Part shown: positions 4,463-32,000 of the stretch, in pieces | Position numbering within the stretch: the first letter of the stretch is position 1 | How the letters are laid out: every line of letters begins with the position of its first letter | NCBI RefSeq assembly: GCF_900232105.1 | Contig: NZ_LT934425.1 | Location: 1,230,001 to 1,262,000, forward strand | Length of the DNA: 32,000 nucleotides | Direction of reading: 5' to 3' | Origin: Candidatus Kuenenia stuttgartensis | GTDB lineage: Bacteria > Planctomycetota > Brocadiia > Brocadiales > Brocadiaceae | Translations under genes and position numbers: made by a program | Notes under the pieces: generated by a model | Told to the model about the DNA's origin: nothing | The model's database searches: none | What the model saw: only the letters and a program-made list of their open reading frames with translations

Positions 4463-5998
4463 ATGAAGAAAAAAATTTTATTGGTAGATGATGAAGAAAC
4501 GCTGCGATGGGCTTTGCAAAATACCCTTTTGGATGACGGTTATGATGTGGAGGAGACCAACGATAGCATTGAAGCCCTGGAATTGGCGAAAAAAAGAAAA
4601 TACGATTTGGTGATTAGCGATTTAACTATGCCCTTCATGAATGGCGTGCAGTTAATTGCTGAAATAAAGAAGGCAAATCCCTCAATAAGGGCGATTATTA
4701 TGACGGGTTATGGTTCAACGGAGGCGGTTATTGAGGCGATGCATACCGGCGTTTCTGATTTTATAACAAAGCCTTTTAAGCTTGAACATATGAAGAAGGT
4801 GATTCGCAAAGTCCTGAGTGAAGGCGAAAATACCGGTACAAATGCGCATAGCGAAAAAAAACGCGGGAATGAAGAACCACGGCCGTGTGAGGTATATACT
4901 GACAAGCACAAGGATTCATCCTGTTATATTGTGCAGGACGAAACAGAGAAGGCAAATCTTACTTTTTATGATGCCGTTGAGACTGATGACCGCCAGTTGG
5001 CGCTGTTTGGAAGTTTTTCACGCGAGGCCGGGTTGGAAAATCTGGATACGGTGATAAAAACAGTTTTTCGCTATGAGGCTAAAACATGCAGATCACCGGC
5101 ATCTTTGATAAAAAACATGAATACATTTCTCTGCGAAAATATAAAAAACCGTTTTCCGCTTATGCTTTTCTGTGTAATTTTGGAGAAACAAGGGCAAAAA
5201 CTCTCTTATTCAATTTGCGGGGAAGGACTCGCCTGTTTTGTATTTTCGCAGGAAAAAGAAATGACACAGTTGCAATCGTATCCCTTATTCCTAAATATGT
5301 TTCCTGACATAAGCGTGCCGGAGCAAACCCTGCCAATGCCTGCGGGTAATAGATTTATTGTGATTGACAGCAATGCTGTTGCTACAAGCATCCGGAAGGG
5401 AATTATTCAGAAAGACAGGCTCAGGGATGCACTTGTGCGGGATGTTGCCGGGGATTGTGAGCATGTGGCGAAAAAAATGAAAGAGGGAATAGTTGGATGG
5501 CATGAACTGACTGCCGATGCACGAAATTGTTCCGTCGCTGCCTTTACCCTGGAGAATGGCAGATGCATGCCATGGAAAGAAGAGATTTCTATTTCCATGC
5601 CCATTGATGATTATGATGAAGTGCTGCAATTATTCGAAGAAAAGTTGTCAAAAATAGTGGGTGACGAGTGTAAGAGGCATGACATTATTACGTCTGTTAA
5701 TGAGGCCGTTTTGAACGCATTATTCTTTGCATACAAGGAGGGGGAAAAAGGGGAAATTGTTCTGAAATTTTCTAGATTGGGGGAAGATATCATCATAGTG
5801 GTAAGCGACAGGGGCTGTGGATTTGATACGCAGAACTATGAAGAACCTGATACGACATTTTATAAAGGCATAGCAAGAAAAGACGGGCGAGGGATTTTTG
5901 TTATGAAACAGTTAATGGATAGAGTAATGATACAATCCGGCAGGGGAACCGGGACTTCGGTCTTTTTGGCGAAACGGGTAAACTTCTATGGAAATTGA
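4463..5998 (+). CDS. Fusion protein: receiver domain + SpoIIE/PP2C-like (probably degenerate) domain + RsbW/SpoIIAB-type anti-sigma serine kinase domain
   Basis: 511 aa. N-terminal REC (LLVDDEETLR, VISDLTMPFMNG, TKPFKL). Middle region aligns by eye to the SpoIIE pattern (FYDAVE..LALFGSFSREAG..CGEGLA..IVIDSNAV) but with the GDvsGhG and aGH motifs substituted. C-terminal HATPase_c_2-like region (NEAVLNAL, VSDRGCGFD, GRGIFVMKQLMDRV, GTGTSVFL). Confidence 0.7.
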   Translation: MKKKILLVDDEETLRWALQNTLLDDGYDVEETNDSIEALELAKKRKYDLVISDLTMPFMNGVQLIAEIKKANPSIRAIIMTGYGSTEAVIEAMHTGVSDFITKPFKLEHMKKVIRKVLSEGENTGTNAHSEKKRGNEEPRPCEVYTDKHKDSSCYIVQDETEKANLTFYDAVETDDRQLALFGSFSREAGLENLDTVIKTVFRYEAKTCRSPASLIKNMNTFLCENIKNRFPLMLFCVILEKQGQKLSYSICGEGLACFVFSQEKEMTQLQSYPLFLNMFPDISVPEQTLPMPAGNRFIVIDSNAVATSIRKGIIQKDRLRDALVRDVAGDCEHVAKKMKEGIVGWHELTADARNCSVAAFTLENGRCMPWKEEISISMPIDDYDEVLQLFEEKLSKIVGDECKRHDIITSVNEAVLNALFFAYKEGEKGEIVLKFSRLGEDIIIVVSDRGCGFDTQNYEEPDTTFYKGIARKDGRGIFVMKQLMDRVMIQSGRGTGTSVFLAKRVNFYGN

Positions 5999-7719: not shown

Positions 7720-9555
7720 ATGAATAGAAGAATAATTTTTATACTCATATTTCTTTTAGGCGTATTTCCTGTATGCTCTCTTTCCAAAGCCGGTGAGGAG
7801 ACTACTGGCGAGGCGAAGGAGGATATCTCAAATACCGTGCAGGGCGTATTGAACGAGGAGAGGAAAAACCTGGAAATGCTTCAGATGCAGTTGCAGGCTA
7901 TTGATGAATCAAGCGAACTCAGTGAATCATTAAATAAAGAGTTGAGAAATCTTGAGATGCTCCAAATGCAATTGCAAATATTAAGAGATCAGGAGTTAGA
8001 AGAAAAGGAAGATAATGGCGCCGGGACGAAGGCGGCTGAAAAGAAGAGTGGTGCTCCGGAAGAAAGAAAAGAGGTTTTTATACAACCAAATGAAAATATC
8101 ATGCTGAAAAAAGAACTGGACGAGTATGATATGCCGGTTTATTCAATTAACGCAAAACAGGTGCAGGTGTCTGAAATATTGAAAGCGCTGTCAGCAGTCT
8201 ATGGCAAAAGTATTATTGTGGATGAAGAAATTGCACCCGAATACTTGTCATCTTTTATAAATGTATCAATCAAAAAAAGCCCATTACAGGATATATTGGA
8301 AGTAATTATCGGAATGCGCAACCTGGAATTTATTCCGAAAGAGAACGCTATATTTGTTACCTCTTTGTCACAGCTTAACGTCGATACGGCATCTGACTAT
8401 TATAAGGATAAGGCTGCCCAAATATATCAAAGGGCACAAATAAAATATCCCAACGACAAAATGGTCGTCAAGGCGTATTATGAACTGGGGAATTATTATT
8501 ATGATCTGGGTTTCAATTTTCTTGCGTTGCAGGAATATCAGGTTGTTGTAAAAAAATATATAACGTCTCTCTTTGCAAAAGATGCTTTATTTAAAATCGG
8601 AGACTGTTATTACCGCCTCAATGACCCGGAAAGCGCCATTAGGGCGTATTTTCAGTTTATTTATGGCTATCCGAAAGATCCTTTAATTGCCGATGCTTTT
8701 ATGGGGATCGGCGACTCTTTAATGATGCAGGGGTTTTATGTGCGGGCAAAGGACACCTACGAAAGGGTGCTGAATGGATATCCGGAAACAGAGATTGCCG
8801 CTAAGGCGCAGCTTAACATTGCCAAAGCGCTTGCAAAAATGGAAAAACACCGGGAGGCGATTCGGGCATTGATGGAGGCCAGGGAACTCTATAATTCCCT
8901 CCATATAGGGGCTGAGATTGAATATTTAATAGGAAAATGTTTATTCTCGTTGAAGGAGTATGAGGATGCCAAAACAGTTTTGGGGAATTTCCTGGCCAAT
9001 GCGGGCAATGAGAGATATGCCGAAGACGCAAGTTTCTTATTGGGAGAATGCTTCTATAATAATGAGAATTATGTTGAGGCATTCCAGGTTTTTAAGAGAG
9101 CGCTGGAAACCTATCCAAACAGCAGCAATGTCCCACGCGGTATGTATTTTTTGGGAAAGTCTCTGCGGGCAATGCACTTTTATGATTCTGCGATAAAAAC
9201 ATTCCGGGAAGGGATACAATTTTGGCCAACTAATGAATATGCGGACAAAATGGCCATGGAGATAGGATGGTGTTATTTTGATGATGATAATTATGCGCGG
9301 GCGCAGGAAGGTTTTAAGGATTTTATAAAGAAGTACCCTTACAGCAAGGTATTAATAGAAGGAATGGTTGGCCTGGCGGATGCACTCTTCTGCGAAAAAA
9401 AATACGAACAAGCTGTGAAGGCATATATAGATGTTTTAGGAAATAGCAGCGAAAAGGAAATCAGGGCGTTTGCATTTGAAAGAATTGGCGCTTGTTATAA
9501 AGCTATGGGAAAACTGGAACAAGCAATAAAAGCGTTTCGTTTAGAGTTGGGATGA
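7720..9555 (+). CDS. Secreted multi-TPR protein with N-terminal coiled-coil repeat and a secretin/TonB-N-terminus-like (STN-like) module
   Basis: 611 aa. Signal-peptide-like start (RRIIFILIFLLGVFPVCSLSKA). Duplicated NLEMLQMQLQ segment. Block YSINAKQVQVSEILKALSAVYGKSIIVDEEI...PLQDILEVIIGMRNLEFIPKENAIFV resembles secretin N-terminal / STN modules. More than 8 TPR-like repeats to the C-terminus. Confidence 0.55.
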   Translation: MNRRIIFILIFLLGVFPVCSLSKAGEETTGEAKEDISNTVQGVLNEERKNLEMLQMQLQAIDESSELSESLNKELRNLEMLQMQLQILRDQELEEKEDNGAGTKAAEKKSGAPEERKEVFIQPNENIMLKKELDEYDMPVYSINAKQVQVSEILKALSAVYGKSIIVDEEIAPEYLSSFINVSIKKSPLQDILEVIIGMRNLEFIPKENAIFVTSLSQLNVDTASDYYKDKAAQIYQRAQIKYPNDKMVVKAYYELGNYYYDLGFNFLALQEYQVVVKKYITSLFAKDALFKIGDCYYRLNDPESAIRAYFQFIYGYPKDPLIADAFMGIGDSLMMQGFYVRAKDTYERVLNGYPETEIAAKAQLNIAKALAKMEKHREAIRALMEARELYNSLHIGAEIEYLIGKCLFSLKEYEDAKTVLGNFLANAGNERYAEDASFLLGECFYNNENYVEAFQVFKRALETYPNSSNVPRGMYFLGKSLRAMHFYDSAIKTFREGIQFWPTNEYADKMAMEIGWCYFDDDNYARAQEGFKDFIKKYPYSKVLIEGMVGLADALFCEKKYEQAVKAYIDVLGNSSEKEIRAFAFERIGACYKAMGKLEQAIKAFRLELG

Positions 9556-11794: not shown

Positions 11795-13117
11795 ATGAAA
11801 AATATTGCCGTGAACAAATATCCGAAAAAATTCAGGAATGAACTCGCAACCGCCTTTGAACAGTTTAATCTTTATACATTGCGTTTGGAAGAGGCTTACA
11901 ATAAGCTGCAAAGCAGGGTAAAGGAAATAGATAAGGAGATGGAAGATACAAATGCCCGTTTAAAGGATAAAGTGCAGGAACTCGACAGCCTTACGAAATA
12001 TCTAAATAGTCTTTTGGGAAGTATTCATAGCGGTGTTATCGCCATAAATGTGAAAGGGGAAATAACTACTTTCAATACGGCGGCAGAAGAAATATTGAGC
12101 TTCAGCGGGTCTTGCGTGGTAGGGGGAAATATAGCGTGTTTATACGAAAATGCGGACGGTGGTGAATCCTTGCTTACGGAGGCTATTAAAAAGGGGCAAA
12201 ATTTTATTAATGTTGAGCGTAAAATAAAGACCAGCCAGGGATTAACCAGGATGCTGGAAAGCAGCGTGTCACTGATTAAGGACTCGCAGGACAATATTAT
12301 AGGCGCTGTAGAGGTGTTTAAAGACTTATCAAAGATAAGAGATTTGGAGATGCGATTGAGAAAAGCGGATAAACTTGCAGCCATTGGCGCAATGGCGGCC
12401 AGTATTGCCCATGAAATTCGTAATCCACTAAATGGTATTGAAGGGTTTTCTGCATTACTTGCAAGGGACTTTGAAGATTCCGACCCCCGTAAGAAACTGG
12501 TAAAAAATATAATACAAGGCACAAAAAATCTGAACAAAACGGTTACCGAGTTGCTGGTATTCGCGCGTCCGGTGCGATTGAGTTTAATGAATAGCCGTAT
12601 ATCTGAAATTTTGGACAGAACACTCTTTTTTATTAAGGAAGACATGAACCGGAATGGAATAGATGCTATTTCTATCCATAAAGAATACGGCGCAGATGAT
12701 TATTGTTTGAAATGCGATGCGGAAAAATTGCAGCAGGTCTTTTTGAATCTTTGCTTAAATGCAATTCAATCTATGACATGCGGAGGCCATTTAACGGTAT
12801 TTACGCGGACAATAGAGGGAGAAAACGACAACGGCGTTGTTCAGATTGGCATAAAGGATACCGGAGTAGGAATTAAAAAAGAGGTTGTCCGGAAGATGTT
12901 TGACCTCTTTTTTACTACAAAACAGGATGGAACGGGGATTGGATTGGCAATTGTGAACAAAATTGTAGAAGCGCATAACGGCAAAATCTTTGTTGAAAGC
13001 GAAGAGGGAAAGGGAACGACATTTTATATTAATCTGCCCATAAATTCGCATGACTATATGGATTCGTACAGCGCCTTCGTTCCGGAAGAAGAGGCATTGG
13101 CGATGCAGTTTGCTTAA
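11795..13117 (+). CDS. Cytoplasmic PAS sensor histidine kinase (FlrB/FleS-like by context)
   Basis: 440 aa with no hydrophobic span. Coiled-coil N-terminus, PAS-like GVIAINVKGEITTFNTAAEEIL, H-box IAHEIRNPLNGI, N-box LNLCLNAIQS, G1 DTGVGI, G2 GTGIGLAIV. Confidence 0.85.
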   Translation: MKNIAVNKYPKKFRNELATAFEQFNLYTLRLEEAYNKLQSRVKEIDKEMEDTNARLKDKVQELDSLTKYLNSLLGSIHSGVIAINVKGEITTFNTAAEEILSFSGSCVVGGNIACLYENADGGESLLTEAIKKGQNFINVERKIKTSQGLTRMLESSVSLIKDSQDNIIGAVEVFKDLSKIRDLEMRLRKADKLAAIGAMAASIAHEIRNPLNGIEGFSALLARDFEDSDPRKKLVKNIIQGTKNLNKTVTELLVFARPVRLSLMNSRISEILDRTLFFIKEDMNRNGIDAISIHKEYGADDYCLKCDAEKLQQVFLNLCLNAIQSMTCGGHLTVFTRTIEGENDNGVVQIGIKDTGVGIKKEVVRKMFDLFFTTKQDGTGIGLAIVNKIVEAHNGKIFVESEEGKGTTFYINLPINSHDYMDSYSAFVPEEEALAMQFA

Positions 13118-13158
13118 GTAGCAAGTTATTTATGTCTTCCAGTCTATAGGGGAATAAA

Positions 13159-14529
13159 ATGAGTGTCGAGAAAATAATGGTTGTCGATGATGATGCATTG
13201 GGGCGTGAATACCTCTGTGAAACGCTGAAAAGAGGCGGATATGATGTTACAGGGGTTGGCAACGGACAGCAAGCCGTCTCGCGAATCGGCAAAGAAGATT
13301 TTGACATGATATTCATGGATATGAAAATGCCTGGAATGGACGGCATGGAGGCGCTTGAAAAGGTAAAGGGAATTTCGTCGGAAACCGTAGTCATTCTCAT
13401 GACTGCGTATGGCACTATAGAGTCTGCTGTGGAAGCTATGAGAAAAGGCGCTTATGATTACATTATAAAACCTTTTTCTCCCGATCAGATAGAGCTTTTA
13501 ATCTCAAGGGTGAATGAACGGCAGAAATTAATCGCCGAAAATAAATACTGGCGGTCTGCTTCCAATGTGGATGAAAAATCTGAGCCTGTGTACAGCAAAA
13601 ATTCTAAAATGTCGCAAATATATGAACAACTGAAAAAGATTGCACAGAGCAAGGCAAGTGTTCTTATACAGGGAGAAAGCGGTACGGGCAAGGAATTAGT
13701 TGCGCGTGCGATACATTATTTCAGCCCGCGCTGCGAAAAACCTTTTATTCGGGTAAATTGCGCAGCCCTGGCAGAGTCCCTCCTGGAAAGCGAACTCTTT
13801 GGGCACGAACGCGGCGCATATACCGGAGCGGTGGCAAAGCGTATAGGACGCTTTGAACTGGCAAACGAAGGTACGCTGCTTCTTGATGAAGTCAGCGAGA
13901 TTTCTCCCAATATACAGGCAAAGTTGTTGCGGGTGCTGGAAGAAGAGGAATTTGAGCGGGTTGGGGGAGAAAAAACCATAAAAATCGATGTCCGCATTGT
14001 GGCAACCACAAACAGGGATTTGGCAAAGGAAATACAAAAGGGGACGTTTCGCGAGGATTTGTTTTACCGGTTAAATGTTGTTCCAATACACTTACCGCCC
14101 TTACGGGAGAGGCGCGAAGATATCCCGTTGCTGGCGAATACCTATCTTGAAAAATATAGTTCGGAAAATAATTCATCTGTCAAATCGATTGAAAAAAGGG
14201 CAATGGATTACCTTTCCCAATACAATTGGCCTGGGAATGTGAGGGAATTGAAAAATATTATGCAAAGAGCGGTTGTTATGGGTTCATCGGAAGAGCTTGG
14301 ATTAGAGAACTTTACATCCCTCATTGACATAAAAAAATCCGAACATACCATGTGTAATGATTCCGTAAACATAAAAAAGAATGGTCAATCTATTGAAGAT
14401 GCAGAGAAGGAGTTGATTTTTACCACACTCGAAAAAACGGGCGGGAATAAAACAAAGGCAGCCGGGTTGCTTAAAATTACAACCAGAACATTGCGGAATA
14501 AACTCAATAAATACGTAATTGCTCAATAA
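13159..14529 (+). CDS. Sigma-54-dependent response regulator (NtrC family; FlrC/FleR-like by context)
   Basis: 456 aa. REC (MVVDDDALGREYL, FMDMKMPGMDG), GESGTGKE, GAYTGA variant of the GAFTGA loop, HTH GNKTKAAGLLKITTRTLRNKLNKY. Sits between the kinase gene and flgB. Confidence 0.9.
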   Translation: MSVEKIMVVDDDALGREYLCETLKRGGYDVTGVGNGQQAVSRIGKEDFDMIFMDMKMPGMDGMEALEKVKGISSETVVILMTAYGTIESAVEAMRKGAYDYIIKPFSPDQIELLISRVNERQKLIAENKYWRSASNVDEKSEPVYSKNSKMSQIYEQLKKIAQSKASVLIQGESGTGKELVARAIHYFSPRCEKPFIRVNCAALAESLLESELFGHERGAYTGAVAKRIGRFELANEGTLLLDEVSEISPNIQAKLLRVLEEEEFERVGGEKTIKIDVRIVATTNRDLAKEIQKGTFREDLFYRLNVVPIHLPPLRERREDIPLLANTYLEKYSSENNSSVKSIEKRAMDYLSQYNWPGNVRELKNIMQRAVVMGSSEELGLENFTSLIDIKKSEHTMCNDSVNIKKNGQSIEDAEKELIFTTLEKTGGNKTKAAGLLKITTRTLRNKLNKYVIAQ

Positions 14530-24571: not shown

Positions 24572-24793
24572 ATGGTGGATTGGAGGAACCACATTGTAAG
24601 TACATCGGATGTGCTTAGGGGAAAACCCAGAATTAAAGGAACCAGAATACCGGTTAGCCTTATCCTTGGGTATTTGGCTGCTGGCGAACCTCTTGAAAAA
24701 ATTATGGCGGAATTTCCTGGTATTACTAAGGAACAAATAGCAGCTTGTCTGGATTATGCCCGCGAGCTTTCTGAATATGAGGTAGCCGTTTGA
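24572..24793 (+). CDS. DUF433-family protein (antitoxin-like)
   Basis: 73 aa. VLRGKPRIKGTRIPVSLILGYLAAGEPLEKIMAEFPGITKEQIAACLDYA is the DUF433 pattern. Confidence 0.8.
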   Translation: MVDWRNHIVSTSDVLRGKPRIKGTRIPVSLILGYLAAGEPLEKIMAEFPGITKEQIAACLDYARELSEYEVAV

Positions 24794-25074
24794 TGGCGTT
24801 GAGATTCCTTGAGGATCACTGTGTTTTCAATTTTATAATCTAAACACTTCTGGATGCTGGTTTCGAAGTGTTTAGATTAAGGGATTATGCTTCTCCGGAT
24901 GCGGTTGACCAAACTGTAATTTCAATAGCGCAGGAACTCGATTCTATTTTGATTTCTTTGGATGGGGATTTTACAGATATAGTAAATTACCCTCCCGCAA
25001 ACTACAAAGGCATTATCTCTCTACAAGTAAGAAATCATCCTGGTAACACTTTTAACAATACGAATCAACCTTAA
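24793..25074 (+). pseudogene. DUF5615-family (PIN-like) partner gene carrying an in-frame TAA
   Basis: The ATG overlaps the DUF433 stop (TGATG). It reads MALRFLEDHCVFNFII*TLLDAGFEVFRLRDYASPDAVDQTVISIAQELDSILISLDGDFTDIV, collinear with the family pattern at normal length except for the TAA at 24841..24843. Confidence 0.65.
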
Positions 25075-25090
25075 CCACTATACACACATT

Positions 25091-26551
25091 ATGAATACCC
25101 CAGAGCCGCTTATCTTTGAAAAATCTGTTCCCAACAGAAGATGTTTTAGCCTGCCCGCCTGCGATGTGCCGGAAAGCCCAATAACACAGTTAATTCCTCA
25201 AAAAATGCAAAGGAGCCGGAACCCCAACTTTCCCGAAGTATCGGAAATTGACATAGTGCGGCACTTTACAAAACTTTCCCAAATGAACTATTGCGTTGAC
25301 ACGCATTTTTATCCGCTGGGTTCATGTACCATGAAATACAATCCGAAGATTAATGAAGATGCCGCAAACCTGGAAGGTTTTACAAGGCTACATCCTTATC
25401 AACCGCAAGAACAATGTCAGGGTATTTTAAAAATACTCTACGATCTGGAACAGATGCTTGCAGATATATCAGGTATGCCTTGTTTCACATTACAACCTGC
25501 GGCGGGCGCCCATGGTGAATTAACAGGTATGCTGATAATTCAGGCATATATGAAGAAGCAGCGGGAAATCAGAAATACCATTATTGTGCCCGATTCTGCC
25601 CATGGAACAAATCCTGCCTCCGCTGCCCTTTGCGGCTACCGTATAGCATCCGTCCAATCAGACGCCAACGGACTTATCGATGTTAAAAAATTGAAACAAA
25701 TGCTGTCAAATGATACAGCGGCTCTCATGGTTACCAACCCCAACACCCTAGGTCTTTTTGAAAAAGATATACTTGAAATAAGTAAAATCGCCCACGATGC
25801 CGGAGCGCTGGTTTATTGTGACGGCGCCAACATGAATGCGCTTCTGGGCATAGCACGTCCGGGAGACATGGGGGTAGATATTTTACACCTTAATCTGCAC
25901 AAGACATTTTCTACCCCTCATGGAGGAGGCGGGCCTGGGGCGGGTCCGATAGGGGTTTCAAGGGCATTAGAGGTATTCCTCCCTATACCACGAACAGTAA
26001 AAAATGAGGATGATTCATATGCATTAACGTATGATTTCCCGGACTCAATAGGAAGGGTCAGGGCTTTTTATGGTCATGTGGGTATAATGATTCGGGCATA
26101 TACGTACCTGTTGTCGTTAGGAAAGGAGGGGATAATAAAAACGGGGGAAAACGCCGTCTTAAACGCCAATTACCTGAGAAACATCCTTTCAGAATATTAC
26201 GAAATACCGTATGGAAAGACCTGCATGCATGAATTTGTCATATCCGCAAAAAAACAAAAGGCACAGGGCGTTTCCGCTTTGGATATTGCCAAAAAATTAT
26301 TGGATTACGGTTTTCATGCCCCTACGATTTATTTCCCACTAATCGTGGAAGAGGCTTTAATGGTGGAACCGACAGAAACTGAGTCACGGGAAACACTGGA
26401 TGCGTTTGCAGGCGCAATGATTGAAATTGCCGGCGCAATTGCACAAGCGCCGGAAACCGTGCGTAATGCACCGCAAAAAACGAGAATCGGACGCCCTGAC
26501 GAAGTAATTGCCGCCAGAAATCCAAAATTAAGGTGGAAAGGTACCGGGTAG
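25091..26551 (+). CDS. gcvPB: Glycine dehydrogenase (aminomethyl-transferring) subunit 2
   Basis: 486 aa. LIFEKS start, SCTMKYNPK, PLP-lysine motif LNLHKTFSTPHGGGGPG. Confidence 0.92.
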   Translation: MNTPEPLIFEKSVPNRRCFSLPACDVPESPITQLIPQKMQRSRNPNFPEVSEIDIVRHFTKLSQMNYCVDTHFYPLGSCTMKYNPKINEDAANLEGFTRLHPYQPQEQCQGILKILYDLEQMLADISGMPCFTLQPAAGAHGELTGMLIIQAYMKKQREIRNTIIVPDSAHGTNPASAALCGYRIASVQSDANGLIDVKKLKQMLSNDTAALMVTNPNTLGLFEKDILEISKIAHDAGALVYCDGANMNALLGIARPGDMGVDILHLNLHKTFSTPHGGGGPGAGPIGVSRALEVFLPIPRTVKNEDDSYALTYDFPDSIGRVRAFYGHVGIMIRAYTYLLSLGKEGIIKTGENAVLNANYLRNILSEYYEIPYGKTCMHEFVISAKKQKAQGVSALDIAKKLLDYGFHAPTIYFPLIVEEALMVEPTETESRETLDAFAGAMIEIAGAIAQAPETVRNAPQKTRIGRPDEVIAARNPKLRWKGTG

Positions 26552-26998: not shown

Positions 26999-27511
26999 CT
27001 ATTTTGCCACCTTGTAGGCAATAACATTTACCAGTTCAATTTGATACGTCTTGTTCAGGTCTTGTATGCCAATTGCTGCACGGGTTGGACATGATTTGAC
27101 AAATTCCTTATACACGGCGTTCATCTCTCCCCAGTAATCCATATTTTTAAGGAAAATAATTAAATTTACTATTCTATCTGGCTTTGAGCCCATGGCTTCC
27201 AATGCGGTTTTCAGGTTTGAAAAAACCAGTTTAAATTGTTCTTTTGGAACCAGACTAGGCACTTCACCCGACGCATCAACAGGTATAAAACCACCGCAGC
27301 GTATTTTAATTGCCCGGATTTTTGTAAGTCTGACCATGTCCTCTTCAAAGTAATCGCTCATCAACCCTACTTGCCGTTCAGGTTGCTTCCCGACGTTTTT
27401 CAGAGAATCCCTTAGTATAAGGTCTAATAATGTGTCTCTTTCTTTAAAAGACAACTGCAAGGCTTTGTCAATGGGTAATGCATCTAAATCAGCTAAAGTT
27501 AAATTTGCCAT
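26999..27511 (-). CDS. RidA/YjgF/L-PSP family protein with N-terminal extension
   Basis: Start taken at the ATG at 27511 (MANLTLADLD) with RBS gagggg. The C-terminal about 115 aa (IRCGGFIPVDASGEVP...FSNLKTALEAMGSKPDRIVNLIIFLKNM...MNAVYKEFV...PTRAAIGIQDL...IELVNVIAYK) fits RidA. The first about 55 aa have no match I recognise. Confidence 0.75.
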   Translation of the reverse strand: MANLTLADLDALPIDKALQLSFKERDTLLDLILRDSLKNVGKQPERQVGLMSDYFEEDMVRLTKIRAIKIRCGGFIPVDASGEVPSLVPKEQFKLVFSNLKTALEAMGSKPDRIVNLIIFLKNMDYWGEMNAVYKEFVKSCPTRAAIGIQDLNKTYQIELVNVIAYKVAK

Positions 27512-27740
27512 TTTTCCCCTCTTTTCGTTAAAAGACAAAACAAAATATAATTCAATACCAGAAGAATGAGCATATTTTCATACTGCCAGGGGTTAAACCC
27601 CATAAGCGTTAAGTTAAAATTACGGATTGATTTAACCGTGTAATGAATAACGAACAAGTTGCCCGGCAATATTAACCGGTAGATATACGGGTATGGAGGA
27701 TTGCCCGTATAACTACCGGTATATAAATTACACCGTTAAA

Positions 27741-27768
27741 GCAGAGACGCACGGCTGTGCGTCTCTGC
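27741..27768 (-). terminator. Perfect 12-bp-stem hairpin (GCAGAGACGCAC-GGCT-GTGCGTCTCTGC) after the GltB-like gene
   Basis: Lies 47 nt downstream of the stop at 27815 on the (-) strand. The following T-tract is weak (TTT), so terminator function is uncertain. Confidence 0.45.
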
Positions 27769-27814
27769 ATTTTGATTGCGGCTTTGCTGCGTTATGATGC
27801 AACAAATGGTAACG

Positions 27815-29392
27815 TCATGCATCCAGAACCCTCTCTGCTTGTTCTTTGTCATAATCCATGATATAGGTAATGCCGGTGATATCTGTAGCTTCTCTCGTTA
27901 ATGTAAAAATATCATCCCTCGTTATATCGTTAACCGACCATCTCCGGGAACCGGCCATCAGTTGCCTCAATCCAGTTGCCAGGCGCTGATAATAAGAATA
28001 CATGCCAATGGCGCCTGTGGGAATATTGCCAAACCGATCCTTTACCTTTTGTGAGTAATAGAAGATTTGATCGGTGGAAGAACCATATTCCGAAACAGGT
28101 TTTGGCACTTTCCCTTCTGCCACCGCCTTGCCGATGGTATTGCCAACCATGGCGGCGCAAATGGTAGACCGTGACATCCCTACTGCCTTAATAAATGGCG
28201 ATAAGAGGGCAAAAGATTTATAAATATGGTCTTCCGAGACGAGACCCCCTGCAAGGACTATATCAGGGACATATTCGCCACGGTCCGCAAGCCTTTTGCA
28301 ATATTCATACGTTAATGCGGCGATATACACCGTTGGCAGTCCCCATTCATTCATCATACGCCAGGGACTCATGCCCGTTCCGCCGCCGGAACCATCGATT
28401 GTCAGGACATCTATCCTCGCCCAGGAAGCAAATTTAATGGCGCGGGCAAGATCGGAAGGCCGGTAAGACCCTGTCTTTAAAAAGACATATTTGGCGCCGG
28501 CATCTCTTAAATGCTGGACGTTATTCATGAATCCGTCAAATGCCCGCGACATGGCGTCCGGTATTGCGCAGATCCGTGTATGTCTTTCAAAACCCTTAAT
28601 CGTCCCGTTTTTAAATGCCTGCTGCGTAAGTGCATCTTCCGGGTCGGGAATGACTACATACCCAAGTTTTTTTAACCGGATGGCCTTTTCAATGGAGGTT
28701 AACTTTACCTCGCCGCCGATATTTTTGGCGCCCTGTCCCCATTTCAATTCGACGGCGTCCGCCCCTAATTTCTCAAGGGAGTAGGGCAATACCCCAAGGC
28801 GCCAGTCTTCCTGGTTTGCCTGAATTGCAATAAATCCATACCCATCCTTTTGATTATCTTTAAACGATTTGAAACGCCGCACTAATTCCGGGCTGTTTGT
28901 AACATTGCCGTCCGTTATGGTTGAATCATCATCCATCGCAGCCACATTTTCACCGAGGACAATGCCTGTACCACAGATAGCTGCGCCGGAGCCTAAAGAC
29001 TCAAAGTGGGTTTGGGCTATTTTCGTTGAACCAAGGCCCGTACAAATTATGGGGATACGCAATTTTAGTCCACCGTCCCTCCCCATTTTTGTTTCAATAC
29101 AGGCGTTGGTAAACAGGTCATATTCCTTTTGGTGATGTCCCGTGATTGAGCCTGTTATATTAAAATGAGAAAAATCAACGGGGAAATCCTTTTGTGCCCC
29201 TGCGGTAATTTCGCCAAACGGCACAGGATAAATCGCTTCAGGCCCCCTATAGGCGGATTTGCCAATTTCGCAGTATCCGGGGCAGCCATCCAGGCACGTA
29301 ACGCACATACCGCTCTGGGGCAATACCTCATCGCCTAAACGGGTCCACGTGCCTGTGGCCCTTGATTTGTTCGGGATAAACAAGGATCCCAT
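27815..29392 (-). CDS. Stand-alone FMN-binding glutamate-synthase-family protein (GltB FMN-domain homologue)
   Basis: 525 aa. DGSGGGTGMSPW and VLAGGL motifs of the GltB FMN/TIM-barrel domain. N-terminal Cys cluster CVTCLDGCPGYCEIG. RBS aaggag. No amidotransferase domain and no GltD-like partner nearby. Confidence 0.8.
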   Translation of the reverse strand: MGSLFIPNKSRATGTWTRLGDEVLPQSGMCVTCLDGCPGYCEIGKSAYRGPEAIYPVPFGEITAGAQKDFPVDFSHFNITGSITGHHQKEYDLFTNACIETKMGRDGGLKLRIPIICTGLGSTKIAQTHFESLGSGAAICGTGIVLGENVAAMDDDSTITDGNVTNSPELVRRFKSFKDNQKDGYGFIAIQANQEDWRLGVLPYSLEKLGADAVELKWGQGAKNIGGEVKLTSIEKAIRLKKLGYVVIPDPEDALTQQAFKNGTIKGFERHTRICAIPDAMSRAFDGFMNNVQHLRDAGAKYVFLKTGSYRPSDLARAIKFASWARIDVLTIDGSGGGTGMSPWRMMNEWGLPTVYIAALTYEYCKRLADRGEYVPDIVLAGGLVSEDHIYKSFALLSPFIKAVGMSRSTICAAMVGNTIGKAVAEGKVPKPVSEYGSSTDQIFYYSQKVKDRFGNIPTGAIGMYSYYQRLATGLRQLMAGSRRWSVNDITRDDIFTLTREATDITGITYIMDYDKEQAERVLDA

Positions 29393-29463
29393 AATATACT
29401 CCTTTCCTTGTTGTTAACAAATTAACTGTTGGAATAGTTATAGCGCACCAGCAGATTTTTTGA

Positions 29464-30174
29464 TTAAAATCTGGTTGCCTTCTCTAATCCGTCCCACAAT
29501 ACCGTTCTTGCGTCAAGGAAATCAAGAGCGCCCTTCCTTATTTTTCTCTGCTCCTCTTCCGTTTTAGAGCAAAATACCAGAGAGTTTCTGATGTTTGCGG
29601 CATGCTCAACGTCTAATTCTATATGGGCAGAAAAGAAGAGTACTGCATCATCATTTAAACCGGCGCGTTTACAGCCTTCACGAATCGGCTGATACATGGT
29701 AGGCACAATATACTCAGTTCCTGGCCCCAATGCCCCCAAGGCTTCAACATAATCCATATAATGAATGTTCAGGTATTTTTCCACAAACAATTTTGTCTCA
29801 GGCAGCATTACTATATTGTTCAATGCCTGCTGGTCGGTATTAACTCCGGCTGCTTTCAGGAATCTGCGGAAGATTGCAGGGTGGGTAAGTTCTGCATCCA
29901 TGCCTTTTTTCTCTTCACTTCTGCCGCCGTACTCTTCAAATAAATTCTTAATTAACGGCGCCCTGCCAGCTTCGTCGGGACAAATAGCAATTGCACCCGC
30001 CAAATACCGTGAAAAATGCCTTGAAAAACAATAGTATTGTTCCGCATATAATTTTACTGCCTTCATATCTGCTTTTGTTCTGAATTTTTGCAAATATGGG
30101 TGGTCGTTAACCGCCGGATGTTTTAAAACTTCTGCTTCCAGTTTGTCAAAAAATTCGTCAGTTGACATAGCCAT
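29464..30174 (-). CDS. Heme-oxygenase-like diiron (HDO; CADD/PqqC-like fold) family protein
   Basis: 236 aa. HPYLQKF...YAEQYYCFSRHFSRYLAGAI...NLFEEYGG...HPAIFRRFLKAAGV...GTEYIVP...FSAHIELDVEHA. The E/H, E and H-x3-D-x2-H residues are spaced as expected for the diiron site. RBS aggagg. Confidence 0.7.
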   Translation of the reverse strand: MAMSTDEFFDKLEAEVLKHPAVNDHPYLQKFRTKADMKAVKLYAEQYYCFSRHFSRYLAGAIAICPDEAGRAPLIKNLFEEYGGRSEEKKGMDAELTHPAIFRRFLKAAGVNTDQQALNNIVMLPETKLFVEKYLNIHYMDYVEALGALGPGTEYIVPTMYQPIREGCKRAGLNDDAVLFFSAHIELDVEHAANIRNSLVFCSKTEEEQRKIRKGALDFLDARTVLWDGLEKATRF

Positions 30175-30334
30175 AATTATTAACTCCTCCTAAAAAGTAT
30201 GTAGATTTATCAAAATATCTTAAAATTCAAACAAAGAATCACTAACAATATACTGCACTGAATTAATCAATACACCTCCTTTCTGCTTCATACAGGAATT
30301 AAGAAAGCATTAAATTTCTTAAAATAATCCGCTC

Positions 30335-30742
30335 TTATTTTATACCTTTACTGTTCAGATGTTCGCTATACCTCTGATCCGTTTCCTTAATATGTTTATT
30401 CAGCCAATCGGTAAGGAATTTTGATACCTCTACGGTTAAGCTTACTTTTCCCGCATTGTAATCATTTTGAAGCGCTAATACCTTTGCAGTCATCTTGTCG
30501 TGTTTGTCCTTGTGCTCAACATATTCCGGATAATCATGTTGCTTAAATATCTTCTCTTCTGCGGCAAAATGGAAACCTGTGTAATTTATCAATTTTTTTA
30601 AAATATCACCAACAACGATCTTCCCCTTCCCCTGCCTCATAGCATCATCCAGATCGTTAATCATTCCTATTAGCTGCTTATGATGTCCATCAAACTCAGC
30701 AATTTTTACACTATACTCATCTTTCCAGGTCATTAACGGCAT
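30335..30742 (-). CDS. Bacteriohemerythrin
   Basis: 135 aa. MTWKDEYSVKIAEFDGHHKQLIGMINDL, HFAAEEKIF, EHKDKHDKM, WLNKHIKETDQRY carry the hemerythrin His/Glu/Asp ligand pattern. Confidence 0.88.
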   Translation of the reverse strand: MPLMTWKDEYSVKIAEFDGHHKQLIGMINDLDDAMRQGKGKIVVGDILKKLINYTGFHFAAEEKIFKQHDYPEYVEHKDKHDKMTAKVLALQNDYNAGKVSLTVEVSKFLTDWLNKHIKETDQRYSEHLNSKGIK

Positions 30743-30822
30743 AATTCCATCTCCATAAATAATATTTCCTCTTTAAAAACCCAACGACTTTTTGGATATT
30801 ACGTAGACTGTAGAACTCAGTG

Positions 30823-30838
30823 AGCAATCGTTGTGCCT
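30823..30838 (-). promoter_or_regulatory. Near-consensus sigma-54 promoter AGGCAC-AACGA-TTGCT upstream of the hemerythrin gene
   Basis: The reverse complement of 30823..30838 reads AGGCACAACGATTGCT (consensus TGGCAC-N5-TTGCW), about 80 nt upstream of the ATG at 30742 and directly downstream of a sigma-54 activator gene on the same strand. Confidence 0.7.
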
Positions 30839-30958
30839 GAAAAAAATGCCTGTCTGTTATTTTGAAATAAATATTTGATATGATGAGAGTTATAACAATG
30901 ATGATATTTTTGTTACAGGATGGATAAGTTTTTGAGAGGGGTTGTTAGCAGATTTTTC

Positions 30959-31012
30959 CGAAAAATTTTCGTATATTGGCTATATGCTGGCAAAGCGTAC
31001 GAATTTTTTTCG
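30959..31012. promoter_or_regulatory. Two CGAA-N5-TTCG palindromes, candidate activator binding sites (UAS)
   Basis: CGAAAAATTTTCG (30959..30971) and CGAATTTTTTTCG (31000..31012), centres 41 bp apart, 120-175 bp upstream of the -24 element. Function is inferred only. Confidence 0.3.
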
Positions 31013-31015
31013 CAT

Positions 31016-32000
31016 TCAGCACCATTCTTTGGTTTTGTATTCGATTTTTCGTGTAGATATACCCAATATTTTTGCAGCGGATTGTTTGCTGCCATTAGTT
31101 ATTTGGAGGGTTCTTTGGATGATCTCTTTTTCGGCTTCTTTTAAGGTAGTGCCTATGGGTATTTTAATTACCGGGATATATTCATTGTCCGGCATAATGC
31201 TCTCCGGCAAATGATCAACGGAAATGGTATCGCTTTTACACAATACAATAGCCCGTTCTATGGTATTTTGCAGTTCCCTGATATTGCCCTGCCAATGGTG
31301 GGAAAGGAGCGCTTTTATGGCCTCCGGGTCGAAACCTTTTATCTCTTTCTTGTATTTTTTTGCATATTTAACGGCAAAATAATTTGAAAGAATGGGAATG
31401 TCGTCTTTTCTTTCTCTCAGGGGGGGCATTTGAATGTTGATAACGTTTAGGCGGTAAAATAAATCCTCCCGGAATCTACCTTCGGAGACTTCTTCTTCAA
31501 GGTTCCGGTTTGTTGCGGCGATACACCTCACATCCACTTTTATGGTCTTTTCACCCCCAACACGTTCAAATTCTCCTTTTTCCAGTACGCGCAATAATTT
31601 GACCTGAACTTTCAGACTCATTTCTGCTAATTCGTCCAGAAAAAGGGTTCCGCCGTCTGCCAGTTCAAACCGTCCCTTTCGTGATTGTATCGCCCCCGTA
31701 AAGGCACCCTTTTCGTGTCCGAATAATTCACTCTCGAGTATTCCTTCAGATAGTGCGGCGCAATGCAATGCCACGAATGGTTTTCCGGCCCTTTCGCTCC
31801 TGTAATGTATGGCGTGTGCTACAAGTTCCTTTCCCGTTCCCGTCTCTCCCATAATAAGAACAGATGCCGTACTGGGGGCAACGTCTTCAATCATTTTAAA
31901 AATCCGATGCATTTGCGGAGAGCCGCCCACCAGCTCGGAAAATGTATACTTATCTTTCAGCTCTTCCTTTAACAGCCGGTTTTGGATTACGAGTTGTTGT
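31016..32000 (-). CDS. Sigma-54-dependent transcriptional activator (5-prime end outside the window)
   Basis: AAA+ core GETGTGKE, GAFTGA loop (EKGAFTGA), C-terminal HTH SKQSAAKILGISTRKIEYK. The reading frame stays open to the window edge, so the sensor domain is not visible. Confidence 0.88.
   Translation of the reverse strand, partial: QQLVIQNRLLKEELKDKYTFSELVGGSPQMHRIFKMIEDVAPSTASVLIMGETGTGKELVAHAIHYRSERAGKPFVALHCAALSEGILESELFGHEKGAFTGAIQSRKGRFELADGGTLFLDELAEMSLKVQVKLLRVLEKGEFERVGGEKTIKVDVRCIAATNRNLEEEVSEGRFREDLFYRLNVINIQMPPLRERKDDIPILSNYFAVKYAKKYKKEIKGFDPEAIKALLSHHWQGNIRELQNTIERAIVLCKSDTISVDHLPESIMPDNEYIPVIKIPIGTTLKEAEKEIIQRTLQITNGSKQSAAKILGISTRKIEYKTKEWC

Follow-up and report, generated by a model that had tools for sequence, protein, structure and literature searches.

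The stretch of DNA that we analyzed (32,000 nucleotides, hereafter the window) ends within the Candidatus Kuenenia stuttgartiensis locus kustd1397-1403. An initial annotation had described five co-oriented genes on the minus strand at this end of the window, and inspection of the open reading frames found all five where it had placed them; its family assignments were upheld by profile searches (Pfam, NCBIfam). The features are:

26999..27511 (-), RidA-family protein (kustd1403), 170 aa from ATG; Ribonuc_L-PSP PF01042, 66 bits
27741..27768 (-), 12-bp GC-rich hairpin directly 3' of the stop codon of the GltB-like gene
27815..29392 (-), stand-alone glutamate-synthase-type FMN protein (kustd1401, GltB-like), 525 aa; PF01645, 42.9 bits
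29464..30174 (-), heme-oxygenase-like diiron protein (kustd1400, HDO), 236 aa; PF14518, 105 bits
30335..30742 (-), bacteriohemerythrin (kustd1399), 135 aa; NF033749, 153 bits (cut-off 84)
30823..30838 (-), sigma-54 promoter AGGCAC-N5-TTGCT (GG, 30837-30836; GC, 30825-30824)
30959..31013 (-), two palindromes read from the sequence, candidate upstream activator sites
31016..32000 (-), NtrC-family sigma-54 enhancer-binding response regulator (kustd1398, 'zraR'), C-terminal 327 residues; the gene extends past the window end

The product of kustd1398 scored 248 bits against Sigma54_activat and 35 bits against HTH_8, contains a readable GAFTGA motif, and matched no NCBIfam equivalog at cut-off. In identical public contigs, the full-length protein (448 aa) comprises REC, AAA+ and HTH_8 domains and is preceded, beyond the window, by a 361-aa kinase of PAS-HisKA-HATPase architecture. 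The enhancer-binding protein of the initial annotation is real; more precisely, it is the response regulator of a two-component pair with this PAS kinase. The proposed near-consensus -24/-12 promoter (30838-30823; predicted transcription start near 30812) departs from the consensus by at most one mismatch, as no other site in the window does, and it is unchanged across four Kuenenia-type genomes. The palindromes, CGAAAATTTTTCG at 30971-30959 and GCGAAAAAAATTCG at 31013-31000, lie ~130 and ~170 nt 5' of the -24 element, and both are kept in an alignment of the four genomes (A3).

A diiron gene is paired with a glutamate synthase gene across the anammox clade

A search of 185,579 species genomes for the HDO locus returned 40 loci, every one of them in Brocadiia, and our comparison of gene order covers these 40 species-level genomes, all Brocadiia/anammox. 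The five-gene cluster is not a conserved unit; the unit is a sigma-54 promoter followed by the HDO gene and then a glutamate synthase gene. Conservation of gene order thus held for the HDO to GltB-like core and failed for the hemerythrin gene (K. stuttgartiensis only) and the RidA-like gene (two genera). The HDO gene is almost always followed immediately, in the same orientation, by a gene for either the stand-alone 525-aa FMN/4-Cys protein or, in Scalindua-type genomes, canonical GltB-GltD. The GltB-like gene follows HDO in every locus that lacks canonical GltB and has enough downstream DNA. HDO copies that seemed unlinked were found in the order citrate synthase-HDO-START-GltB (1528 aa, four domains)-GltD, and one locus (L019) has the order GltB-GltD-HDO-GltB-like. 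A -24/-12 promoter almost always precedes HDO: of 41 loci, 37-38 have the motif 5' of the first HDO gene, compared with a background rate of 0.11 per 300 nt.

The initial annotation had reasoned from the absence of the usual partners of these families, an argument that is undercut because the HDO of Scalindua-type genomes (80-91% identical) precedes canonical four-domain GltB and GltD. As the adjacency extends over four genera and two glutamate synthase (GltS) architectures, chance does not explain it, and the K. stuttgartiensis locus is one version of a synteny module that spans the anammox clade. No description of this anammox-wide pairing was found in the papers searched. The literature searched also contained no characterized pathway that combines these genes, in agreement with the initial annotation.

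The hemerythrin and RidA-like genes are lineage-restricted

The hemerythrin translation has a readable H/H/E/H/H/H/D ligand set. Its gene was inserted, specifically in K. stuttgartiensis, 3' of the promoter and 5' of HDO, and it was not found in loci L012 and L013 or in any other genus compared. In published K. stuttgartiensis RNA-seq data (RPKM in NH4-limited/NO2-limited growth), the HDO gene (203/695) and the GltB-like gene (232/662) were expressed at a ratio of ~1:1, at 200-700 RPKM in anoxic steady-state culture, and RNA of the RidA-like gene (65/211) was at about one third of the GltB-like level and co-varied with the GltB-like gene. Hemerythrin RNA (28/23) was ~10-fold below that of HDO and the GltB-like gene and did not co-vary with either, so the hemerythrin gene does not simply belong to one sigma-54 transcript with them. 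The hemerythrin gene had been proposed as a member of the module; it is instead a late add-on with separate expression. Since it lies between the promoter and HDO yet is ~10-fold rarer in RNA, most of the HDO and GltB-like RNA in this dataset may come from a source other than the sigma-54 promoter.

No terminator was found between the HDO and GltB-like genes in Kuenenia and Brocadia, and an intrinsic terminator separates them in Scalindua, Anammoxibacter and deep Brocadiia; co-transcription is therefore not universal. The hairpin reported after the GltB-like gene occurs at the same position in six genomes with divergent sequence, is followed by a T-run in Brocadia, and is a probable partial terminator.

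The RidA-like gene is present in Kuenenia and Brocadia only. A TTG at 27538 is probably not its start because six genomes begin MANLTL. Its product resembles the RidA (YjgF/YER057c/UK114) imine deaminases in its PF01042 match and in keeping the Arg105-equivalent (PTRAAIG), Asn (MNAVY) and Glu (QIEL) residues, but its TIGR00004 score is 54 against a cut-off of 106, and an extension of ~70 residues replaces the first ~25 residues of the RidA fold. This extension, which the initial annotation had flagged as unexplained, is genuine and kept in both genera.

The two-component system and promoter resemble NtrB/NtrC control of nitrogen assimilation in having a cytoplasmic PAS-HisKA-HATPase kinase, a REC-AAA+-HTH_8 activator, and a -24/-12 promoter with palindromes upstream. 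However, both proteins score under the respective cut-offs (NtrC, 443 vs 559; NtrB, 98 vs 240), and the RNA-seq data showed induction by ammonium limitation for amt and P-II genes but for none of the Kuenenia module genes. The ~3-fold change between the two conditions was not significant (padj about 0.9-1).

Homologs of the 525-aa protein lie in nitrogen-assimilation loci

The GltB-like protein matches PF01645 above the gathering threshold, over residues 290-396 only. Sequence and profile searches of the PDB gave no match and did not reach a solved GltS. Its AF2 model is a TIM barrel (pTM 0.84) with glycolate oxidase and GltS 1LLW as Foldseek neighbors; globally, the protein is only weakly similar to GltS (hhalign E 0.0016), and Foldseek ranks glycolate oxidase equally. 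The GltS catalytic motifs QGAK..GG and DG-x-GGTG-x-SP are present, in an arrangement collinear with E. coli GltB that comprises RxGV, (I/L)K-x2-QGAK-x2-3-GG, the following Arg, and DG-x-GGTG-x-SP. The protein shares the FMN TIM barrel with GltB but lacks the amidotransferase, central and GXGXG domains, and an N-terminal C-x2-C-x3-C-x3-C is found instead of the missing C-x5-C-x4-C 3Fe-4S motif. This Cys cluster, already seen in the initial annotation, consists of C30, C33, C37 and C41 and is invariant in 27 homologs. Compared with a gltBD operon, GltD is not adjacent in Kuenenia, whereas the Scalindua-type HDO is upstream of a true gltB-gltD pair.

The GltB-like protein and its homologs in other phyla share 150 invariant columns and 54-63% identity. 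Homologs in Firmicutes are encoded inside P-II/Amt/GlnA nitrogen-assimilation loci, and others behind a NuoEF-like module. The 'FMN-binding glutamate synthase family protein' of the anaerobic Firmicutes Desulforudis and Desulfofundulus has 54-56% full-length identity, the same 525-526 aa architecture and the 4-Cys motif, and is likely, judging from these features, to be the same enzyme as kustd1401, although its gene lies amid glnA, ANTAR regulators, P-II and Amt with no HDO. No biochemical characterization of the family was found in the literature searched; the anammox literature already treats the gene for the 525-aa protein as a GOGAT candidate. Given the P-II/Amt/GlnA context of its homologs, the protein most likely does form glutamate, rather than being a reductase dedicated to a novel pathway, which suggests that the module concerns glutamate synthase rather than an orphan imine pathway.

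The HDO has a full set of metal ligands and resembles BesC and HrmI

All six metal ligands of the HDO (E81, H98, E154, H184, D188 and H191) are kept (alignment A1) and align with those of CADD. Additional charged residues (R56, R71, K76, R103, R213 and R223) are also invariant, which suggests a specific small-molecule substrate. Among solved structures, the top sequence matches of the HDO profile are BesC (4-chloro-allylglycine synthase; 79 bits) and HrmI (45 bits). The AF2 model of the HDO (pLDDT 89) has the seven-helix heme-oxygenase-like fold of BesC (TM 0.80-0.85), which is also that of the L-lysine N6-oxygenases HrmI/BelK (TM 0.82-0.83 to HrmI), and all of these proteins share the 3-His/3-carboxylate ligand set. 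The HDO differs from BesC and HrmI in its low identity (23-24%), in a conserved stretch of 10 inserted residues that separates the first Glu ligand from the first His ligand, in a score of 64 against the NCBIfam BesC cut-off of 500, and in its setting, outside natural-product clusters in an anaerobic host with a glutamate synthase partner. The public annotation of kustd1400 as 'pqqC' is wrong, and orthology to CADD, PqqC or TenA was rejected, with scores far under the cut-offs (CADD, 200; PqqC, 240).

The HDO clade is confined to Brocadiia. In one near relative, the HDO is joined to rubredoxin-like and PCP_red domains, which shows that the HDO site is redox-cycled; three others (P0170, P0174 and P0187) are HNOBA-HisKA-HATPase-REC-Hpt phosphorelay proteins with a C-terminal HDO domain. 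Outgroup HDO relatives have H-NOX (next to one of them) or Crp/Fnr-type regulators as neighbors, and outgroup HDOs are found beside an acyl-CoA-dehydrogenase-fold flavoprotein or fused to rubredoxin.

Possible functions of the module

Our tentative reading, for which the balance of evidence falls somewhat short of even, is that the anammox HDO-glutamate synthase module contains a diiron oxidase whose expression is conditional and which is linked to the glutamate/2-oxoglutarate node. The 525-aa protein would convert 2-oxoglutarate to glutamate by reductive amination for nitrogen assimilation, with electrons that enter through an N-terminal Fe-S site and pass via FMN. The HDO would be an oxidase expressed conditionally under the two-component system and sigma-54, and would probably use O2 on a free amino acid or related metabolite, as its nearest characterized relatives do; in this case, the substrate would belong to the glutamate/glutamine/2-oxoglutarate node. 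Ammonia and an oxo- or imino-acid would be produced and would be fed back by glutamate synthase, by the RidA-like imine hydrolase in Kuenenia and Brocadia, or by an aminotransferase in Scalindua.

Several observations count against this reading. Anammox bacteria are anaerobic and the HDO is well expressed without oxygen, which is awkward for O2-dependent chemistry. The nearest outgroup HDOs have no adjoining glutamate synthase, and the GltS similarity of the 525-aa protein is weak. The terminator between the two genes in several lineages, the low hemerythrin RNA downstream of the sigma-54 promoter, and the missing induction by ammonium limitation also speak against it.

Anammox cells make NO, hydroxylamine and hydrazine, and the HDO could instead be a protective accessory that reduces O2, H2O2 or NO with electrons from glutamate synthase Fe-S/flavin or ferredoxin, or acts in cluster repair as rubrerythrin or RIC/YtfE do, thereby shielding an oxidant-sensitive Fe-S flavoenzyme. 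The two GltS architectures have only Fe-S/flavin chemistry in common, the host is anaerobic, and the HDO is under sigma-54 with its own terminator in several lineages; the rubredoxin-like and PCP_red fusion, the H-NOX and Crp/Fnr-type neighbors, and the recruitment of a hemerythrin next to HDO in K. stuttgartiensis fit as well. We nevertheless consider this unlikely, as every characterized HDO oxidizes a substrate and none is a scavenger or repair protein, the invariant charged residues suggest a specific substrate, and anoxic cells express the HDO gene at a housekeeping level. If the glutamate synthase mainly re-reduced the diferric site after turnover, with the HDO as the main catalyst, this would suit the need of HDOs for an external reductant (the physiological one is known for few) and the flavoprotein neighbor or rubredoxin fusion of outgroup HDOs. 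This idea is improbable, since the GltB-like protein is conserved equally in phyla without HDO, a four-domain GltB-GltD is hard to picture as a mere reductase, and both genes are transcribed separately in Scalindua.

The self-contained novel pathway envisaged in the initial annotation would have an amino acid oxidized or fragmented by the HDO, a 525-aa protein devoted to the reduction of 2-imino acids instead of a glutamate synthase, RidA as the imine quencher, and a hemerythrin that provides or senses O2/NO. Such a pathway is chemically compatible with these families, and both the catalytic Arg kept in the RidA-like protein and the aminotransferase (PRK06855, 702 bits) preceding HDO in Scalindua agree with it. 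It is quite unlikely, however, as the 525-aa protein is orthologous to a family in GlnA/P-II/Amt loci of HDO-less organisms, the same HDO is paired with canonical GltB-GltD, hemerythrin and RidA are restricted to few lineages, and hemerythrin RNA is decoupled. We give even less credence, as little as to the reductase idea, to the HDO as a non-enzymatic diiron sensor of gas or redox that adjusts how active or how strongly expressed glutamate synthase is: the phosphorelay fusions and the H-NOX neighbor point that way, but the HDO in the fusions, accompanied by a methyltransferase, may just as well be an output domain with regulated catalysis, the Brocadiia HDO is single-domain with no DNA-binding or partner-binding module, and its RNA is as plentiful as that of the enzyme to be regulated. 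Incidental adjacency of an HDO with an independent role, as a CADD-type p-aminobenzoate synthase, PqqC or TenA, is highly improbable. Public annotations name PqqC or TenA, and CADD TIGR04305 gives sub-threshold matches to the HDO (72 bits) and a deep-Brocadiia paralog (111 bits); against this stand the shortfall from the cut-offs, Leu28 and Ile164 at the positions of CADD Tyr27 and Lys152, the absence of pqq genes near HDO, and an adjacency kept beyond chance.

The DnfABC 'Dirammox' system of Alcaligenes (a diiron oxygenase, a reductase and a glutamine amidotransferase, linked to hydroxylamine chemistry; PMC9478400) offers a conceptual parallel only, as a diiron oxygenase-type protein genetically tied to glutamine/glutamate-type nitrogen enzymes. 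No homology is implied: DnfA is an AurF/CmlI ferritin-like diiron protein rather than an HDO, and the Dirammox system is aerobic.

Gene cluster and public annotation

Translation confirmed the five minus-strand open reading frames at the positions first read from the sequence, and searches with Pfam and NCBIfam profiles bore out each family assignment in the initial annotation.

26999-27511 (-), RidA-like protein
27815-29392 (-), 525-aa GltB-like protein with an FMN domain and four cysteines (kustd1401)
29464-30174 (-), 236-aa predicted heme-oxygenase-like diiron protein (HDO; kustd1400)
30335-30742 (-), bacteriohemerythrin
31016 to the window end (-), sigma-54 activator

The activator gene is truncated by the window end; on public contigs its full form encodes a 448-aa REC-AAA+-HTH response regulator and is preceded by a gene for a cytoplasmic PAS histidine kinase. 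Identical copies of the HDO protein are encoded on Candidatus Kuenenia stuttgartiensis assemblies, one of them a 4.33-Mb chromosome. The equivalents in strain MBR1 are KSMBR1_1163-1168 (kustd1403, 1401, 1400, 1399, 1398 and 1397, respectively), where the HDO is annotated as 'pqqC' and the 525-aa protein as 'hypothetical protein, glutamate synthase'.

The HDO gene is paired with glutamate synthase genes across Brocadiia

A scan of one genome per species (185,579 species) recovered 40 HDO loci, all in Brocadiia (Kuenenia, Brocadia, Anammoxibacter, Scalindua and deeper lineages). We mapped gene order around these genes by tblastn and checked it with Pfam.

Gene order at HDO loci of Brocadiia (L numbers denote homologous loci in other genomes)
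Kuenenia: kinase - activator - (hemerythrin, K. stuttgartiensis-type genomes only) - HDO - GltB-like - RidA-like
Brocadia: HDO - GltB-like - RidA-like - MIP channel
Anammoxibacter: HDO - GltB-like
Scalindua: aminotransferase (PRK06855) - HDO - GltB-like - (molybdopterin oxidoreductase)
Deep Brocadiia: kinase - activator - HDO paralogue - HDO - GltB-like
L020, L029, L030, L032, L046: citrate synthase - HDO - START-domain protein - canonical four-domain GltB (1528 aa) - GltD
L022: aminotransferase - HDO - GltB - GltD
L019: GltB - GltD - HDO - GltB-like

HDO copies that at first seemed unlinked proved to be linked to canonical GltB-GltD genes, with L028 as the sole exception. The HDOs beside canonical GltB-GltD are 80-91% identical to those beside the stand-alone enzyme, and both arrangements occur in one MAG. 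Because the canonical-GltB loci carry the same HDO, we conclude that the conserved unit is an HDO gene followed by a glutamate synthase gene of either architecture; this order holds across Brocadiia, and the five-gene cluster of the initial annotation is not conserved as a unit. We also reject the HDO as a stand-in for a missing glutaminase domain, since the same HDO also lies ahead of a complete GltB with an amidotransferase domain of its own.

The Scalindua aminotransferase reaches the PRK06855 cut-off. Between HDO and canonical gltB, a 234-aa START-domain protein is conserved in Scalindua-type genomes (L020, L029, L030, L032 at 5031-5735, and L046). At two Brocadia loci (L010, 11068-16104; L014, 3707-5075), the MIP-family channel has an N-terminal extension of ~140 residues and is followed by a duplicated RidA-like fragment; ~1 kb past this fragment lies a gene for a 916-aa protein in which glutamate dehydrogenase (ELFV) is fused to an Asp/Glu racemase domain, which is another tie to glutamate metabolism.

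The HDO is a predicted diiron protein of an isolated clade

The HDO scores 105.5 bits against the Pfam profile PF14518 (cut-off 28.9), and its AF2 model (pLDDT 89) has the seven-helix heme-oxygenase-like fold. In Foldseek comparisons the model matched BesC (7twa; TM 0.80-0.85, rmsd 2.3 Å) and HrmI (TM 0.82-0.83), as well as CADD, UndA and FlcD. Its candidate metal ligands, three His and three Asp/Glu (E81, H98, E154, H184, D188 and H191), pair in order in the alignment with CADD residues E81, H88, E142, H174, D178 and H181, and are invariant across 17 sequences except for E154 (at least 90%); a conserved 10-residue insertion sits between the first two. By profile, fold and ligand set, the protein is thus a predicted diiron member of the HDO superfamily.

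Matches of the HDO to the NCBIfam BesC (64 bits, cut-off 500) and CADD (TIGR04305; 71.6 bits, cut-off 200) models are sub-threshold, as is that of the deep-Brocadiia paralogue to TIGR04305 (110.7 bits, cut-off 200). In a HMMER alignment to CT610, CADD Tyr27 and Lys152, which we take to be the sacrificial residue and the amino donor, correspond to invariant Leu28 and to Ile164 of the HDO; because of these replacements and the score, we rule out a CADD-type p-aminobenzoate synthase. The public annotation as PqqC or TenA is likewise unsupported by scores or neighborhood: the window HDO has no match to the PqqC NCBIfam model, its deep-Brocadiia paralogue reaches 33.7 bits (cut-off 240), and pqqA/B/D/E genes are absent from every locus inspected.

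With just 44 clusters at 90% identity, the HDO subfamily is small, and nearly all of it is of anammox origin. When 1.84 billion representatives were searched exhaustively by profile, scores dropped from 416 and 369 bits to 238 and 211 and then formed a continuum, and by this drop the clade is isolated. Among near relatives, one has rubredoxin-like and PCP_red domains fused to it, and several (P0170, P0174 and P0187) carry the HDO at the C-terminus of HNOBA-histidine-kinase-REC-Hpt phosphorelay proteins. Outgroup single-domain HDO genes adjoin genes for a Crp/Fnr-type regulator and a flavoprotein of acyl-CoA-dehydrogenase fold, or lie between an H-NOX gene and a methyltransferase gene. No glutamate synthase gene stood next to an outgroup HDO relative in the loci inspected, and the pairing is therefore a Brocadiia innovation. 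Still more distant HDOs are fused to domains such as cupin, globin, methyltransferase and class II aldolase, which showed no glutamate synthase link. As a separate matter, the nearest non-Brocadiia HDOs (P0170, P0174, P0187 and P0323) suggest an uncharacterised HDO output module tied to NO/O2 signalling.

The 525-aa protein is a candidate stand-alone glutamate synthase

Against PF01645 the 525-aa protein gave a partial match of 42.9 bits, covering residues 290-396 only, and it had no NCBIfam match. It lacks the four-domain GltB architecture (Ntn amidotransferase, central, FMN and GXGXG), all of which Pfam detects, by contrast, in the 1528-aa GltB of L032. The family has more than 8000 homologues, with proteins of equal length and 54-56% identity in Firmicutes, Omnitrophota, Aminicenantes and Armatimonadota. 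An alignment of 27 homologues (A2) has 150 invariant columns that contain exactly four cysteines, the N-terminal C30, C33, C37 and C41; the [3Fe-4S] motif is absent from the FMN domain. Synthase-site motifs of glutamate synthase occur in order (RxGV, (I/L)K-x2-QGAK-x2-3-GG, a downstream Arg and DG-x-GGTG-x-SP) in a region collinear by local alignment with E. coli GltB residues ~913-1044, and the motif residues are invariant in A2.

The overall likeness to E. coli GltB is weak in hhalign (E 0.0016, residues 323-498 vs 1016-1169), and PDB sequence and profile searches found no solved structure, only a spurious TolR match and designed TIM barrels. The AF2 model is an FMN TIM barrel (pTM 0.84) whose Foldseek neighbors are alpha-hydroxy-acid oxidases (E ~1e-10) and glutamate synthase 1LLW, the latter with the highest query TM-score (0.49). 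Elsewhere, the homologue is found in Desulforudis in the order P-II - Amt - ANTAR - GlnA - homologue - ANTAR - GlnA - GlnA - split GOGAT, in a similar context in Desulfofundulus, and in an Aminicenantales genome behind a NuoE/NuoF-like module near GlnA; the Omnitrophica context was uninformative. Because these contexts point to nitrogen assimilation, we infer that the 525-aa protein is probably a glutamate-forming, Fe-S-fed enzyme of that process. This role is also assumed in anammox papers, and Smeulders et al. 2020 (PMC7438415) count just two glutamate-synthase homologues for the genome, this protein among them.

Predicted sigma-54 control is primarily a property of the HDO gene

The -24/-12 promoter of the initial annotation was verified as AGGCAC-N5-TTGCT at 30838-30823, unique in the window within one mismatch of the consensus. 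It is invariant in four Kuenenia-type genomes, with two conserved palindromes upstream (31013-30959), and the hemerythrin gene is an insertion between it and the HDO gene. A GG-N10-GC motif (at least 8 of 11 consensus positions; background 0.11 per 300 nt) lies within 320 nt 5' of the first HDO gene at 37 of 41 loci, or 38 counting the Kuenenia locus L011; variants are TGGTAT-N5-TTGC in Scalindua, TGGCAC-N5-ATAGCT in deep Brocadiia and AGGCAT-N5-TTGCT in Brocadia.

The gap between the HDO and GltB-like genes is 61-95 nt without a terminator in Kuenenia and Brocadia. Scalindua genomes share a strong intrinsic terminator past the HDO gene (CCCCGTTAG...CTAACGGGG with a T-run; -26 to -39 kcal/mol), followed by a sigma-70-like TTGAAT-N16-TATATT ahead of the GltB-like gene, and Anammoxibacter and deep Brocadiia have a hairpin and then a T-run after the HDO gene. 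As terminators follow HDO in several lineages, we conclude that the predicted sigma-54 control is primarily a property of the HDO gene. The 160-nt hemerythrin-HDO gap of the window had no convincing second promoter or terminator: a second sigma-54 motif was found neither at threshold in L011 nor by eye in the window, and a sigma-70 scan gave only weak 9/12 matches.

Two spacer variants stand apart from these patterns. In L011, from a close Kuenenia relative, a ~200-bp insertion (~9150-9350) that the window lacks separates the sigma-54 promoter from the hemerythrin start. The HDO-to-GltB-like spacer is 699 nt in Scalindua loci L007 (8715-9410) and L048 vs 330-510 nt in other Scalindua, and a terminator scan and searches of it for a conserved ORF and Rfam families were without result.

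Expression of the cluster

We compared these features with published RNA-seq data.

RPKM under ammonium-limited and nitrite-limited growth (changes not significant)
HDO: 203 ammonium-limited, 695 nitrite-limited
GltB-like: 232 ammonium-limited, 662 nitrite-limited
RidA-like: 65 ammonium-limited, 211 nitrite-limited
Hemerythrin: 28 ammonium-limited, 23 nitrite-limited
Activator: 34 ammonium-limited, 49 nitrite-limited
Kinase: 26 ammonium-limited, 27 nitrite-limited

The HDO and GltB-like RNAs are present at ~1:1 and move together, and the RidA-like RNA tracks them at about one third of their level. We confirmed the 12-bp hairpin previously placed at 27741-27768, and the lower RidA-like level is consistent with partial termination at this structurally conserved hairpin, which lies past the GltB-like stop codon. 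Although the hemerythrin gene follows the sigma-54 promoter and precedes HDO, its RNA is flat and ~10-fold below that of HDO, which argues against one simple sigma-54 transcript in K. stuttgartiensis. Ntr-type nitrogen-starvation control is not supported, as the HDO-GltB-like cluster is not induced by ammonium limitation while expression of amt and P-II genes increases 50-150-fold in that dataset.

RidA-like protein and hemerythrin

The RidA-like protein belongs to the broad family (PF01042, 66 bits, cut-off 27.3) and scores below the cut-off of TIGR00004 (54 bits, cut-off 106), where its match begins at profile position 29. A conserved 70-residue extension replaces the N-terminus of the RidA fold, and the protein is 170 aa long in six genomes. 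The catalytic Arg (Arg105 of enteric RidA) corresponds to the R of PTRAAIG, a segment that aligns to PARVAV in PH0854. All of seven sequences have this Arg, and the Asn and Glu of RidA are also kept.

The hemerythrin scores 153.4 bits against NF033749 (cut-off 84), and its translation has the H-H-E-H-H-H-D ligand set (HH20-21, H58, E62, H77, H81, H117 and D122). Although the initial annotation had counted it among the cluster genes, we reject it as a core member because it is confined to K. stuttgartiensis-type genomes and its RNA is low.

Possible roles of the HDO

The reading that best accounts for these observations is an HDO whose expression is conditional and whose function is tied to glutamate synthase. 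Since every characterised HDO that we know of oxidises a substrate, usually a free amino acid, we tentatively favor, at slightly below even chances, an oxidase by analogy: the HDO would oxidise a metabolite at the Glu/Gln/2-oxoglutarate node, and glutamate synthase, the RidA-like protein or an aminotransferase would recycle its products, an oxo- or imino-acid and ammonia. The RidA-like protein, the Scalindua aminotransferase and citrate synthase together point to the 2-oxoglutarate/glutamate node. The main rival, a protective redox accessory, draws on the anaerobic host, the presence of the same HDO with two glutamate synthase architectures and the rubredoxin fusion in a near relative, and we consider it unlikely. 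The stand-alone, O2- or NO-responsive imine pathway of all five genes that was first proposed, in which the hemerythrin would have a part, is rather improbable. We see little likelihood that glutamate synthase is a mere reductase for the HDO, and just as little that the HDO is a sensor; independent roles for two proteins whose genes are paired across Brocadiia are very improbable.

To our knowledge, the HDO family is known solely for O2-dependent chemistry. There is a slim chance that the anammox-specific HDO has a reactive nitrogen species as its real substrate or oxidant, in place of simply O2 with an ordinary amino acid. In one version, the HDO would N-oxygenate glutamine- or glutamate-type nitrogen to the hydroxylamine level. 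In another, it would destroy gamma-glutamyl hydroxamate, gamma-glutamyl hydrazide or 2-oxoglutarate oxime, adducts that glutamine synthetase and glutamate synthase would make from leaked hydroxylamine or hydrazine. In a third, it would hand electrons from reactive nitrogen species to glutamate synthase. If true, this chemistry would be an adaptation of the HDO to an anaerobe and would link anammox catabolic intermediates directly with nitrogen assimilation.

Novelty and significance

Literature searches by locus tag and family combination agree with the initial annotation that no characterised pathway joins these families; they returned only the Smeulders 2020 dataset, where the HDO appears in a supplementary table and nowhere else, and no paper that connects an HDO with glutamate synthase. 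Each part comes from a known family, and what is new is the association of HDO with glutamate synthase.

Anammox bacteria take out a large share of fixed nitrogen in oceans and wastewater, and their ammonium assimilation is, as far as we know, understood from annotation alone. Our analysis indicates that anammox glutamate synthases, whatever their architecture, are accompanied by a clade-restricted, predicted diiron protein whose gene is under predicted sigma-54 control and well expressed in anoxic culture. If functional, this pairing either shows how an Fe-S flavoenzyme of central metabolism has been adapted to cells producing NO, hydroxylamine and hydrazine, or extends the HDO superfamily by a new type of reaction. 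The 525-aa family, widespread in anaerobes and without a solved structure or assay, gains a testable identity as an ammonia- or ferredoxin-linked glutamate synthase, and the public 'PqqC/TenA' annotation is corrected.

Other features of the window

The spacer between the GltB-like and RidA-like genes (27512-27814) folds at -98 kcal/mol (z = -6.3) and holds a second long palindrome, ACCGGTAGTTATACGGG...CCCGTATATCTACCGGT (27675-27720, -), that is absent from other Kuenenia and Brocadia spacers and could be a small inserted repeat element. Searches of intergenic regions for riboswitches and known RNAs (Rfam) gave only a sub-threshold, probably spurious McaS match in the window (27685-27776, +; E 0.03, 29.5 bits vs gathering score 42), which overlaps this palindrome, and none in the Scalindua spacer.

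Beyond the cluster, we observed the following.

24572-25074 (+), DUF433 and DUF5615-type gene pair, toxin-antitoxin-like, between pyruvate carboxylase and GcvPB
25091-26551 (+), GcvPB (glycine dehydrogenase subunit 2, 740 bits), convergent with the cluster and with no GcvPA, GcvT or GcvH neighbor in the window
4-1491 (-), 3014-4423 (+), 4463-5998 (+) and 11795-14529 (+), signalling genes

Signalling genes are dense in the window and include two more REC-sigma-54 activators, of which one has a PAS kinase of its own; a PAS-GAF-GGDEF protein, a REC-SpoIIE-HATPase protein and several TPR proteins are also encoded.
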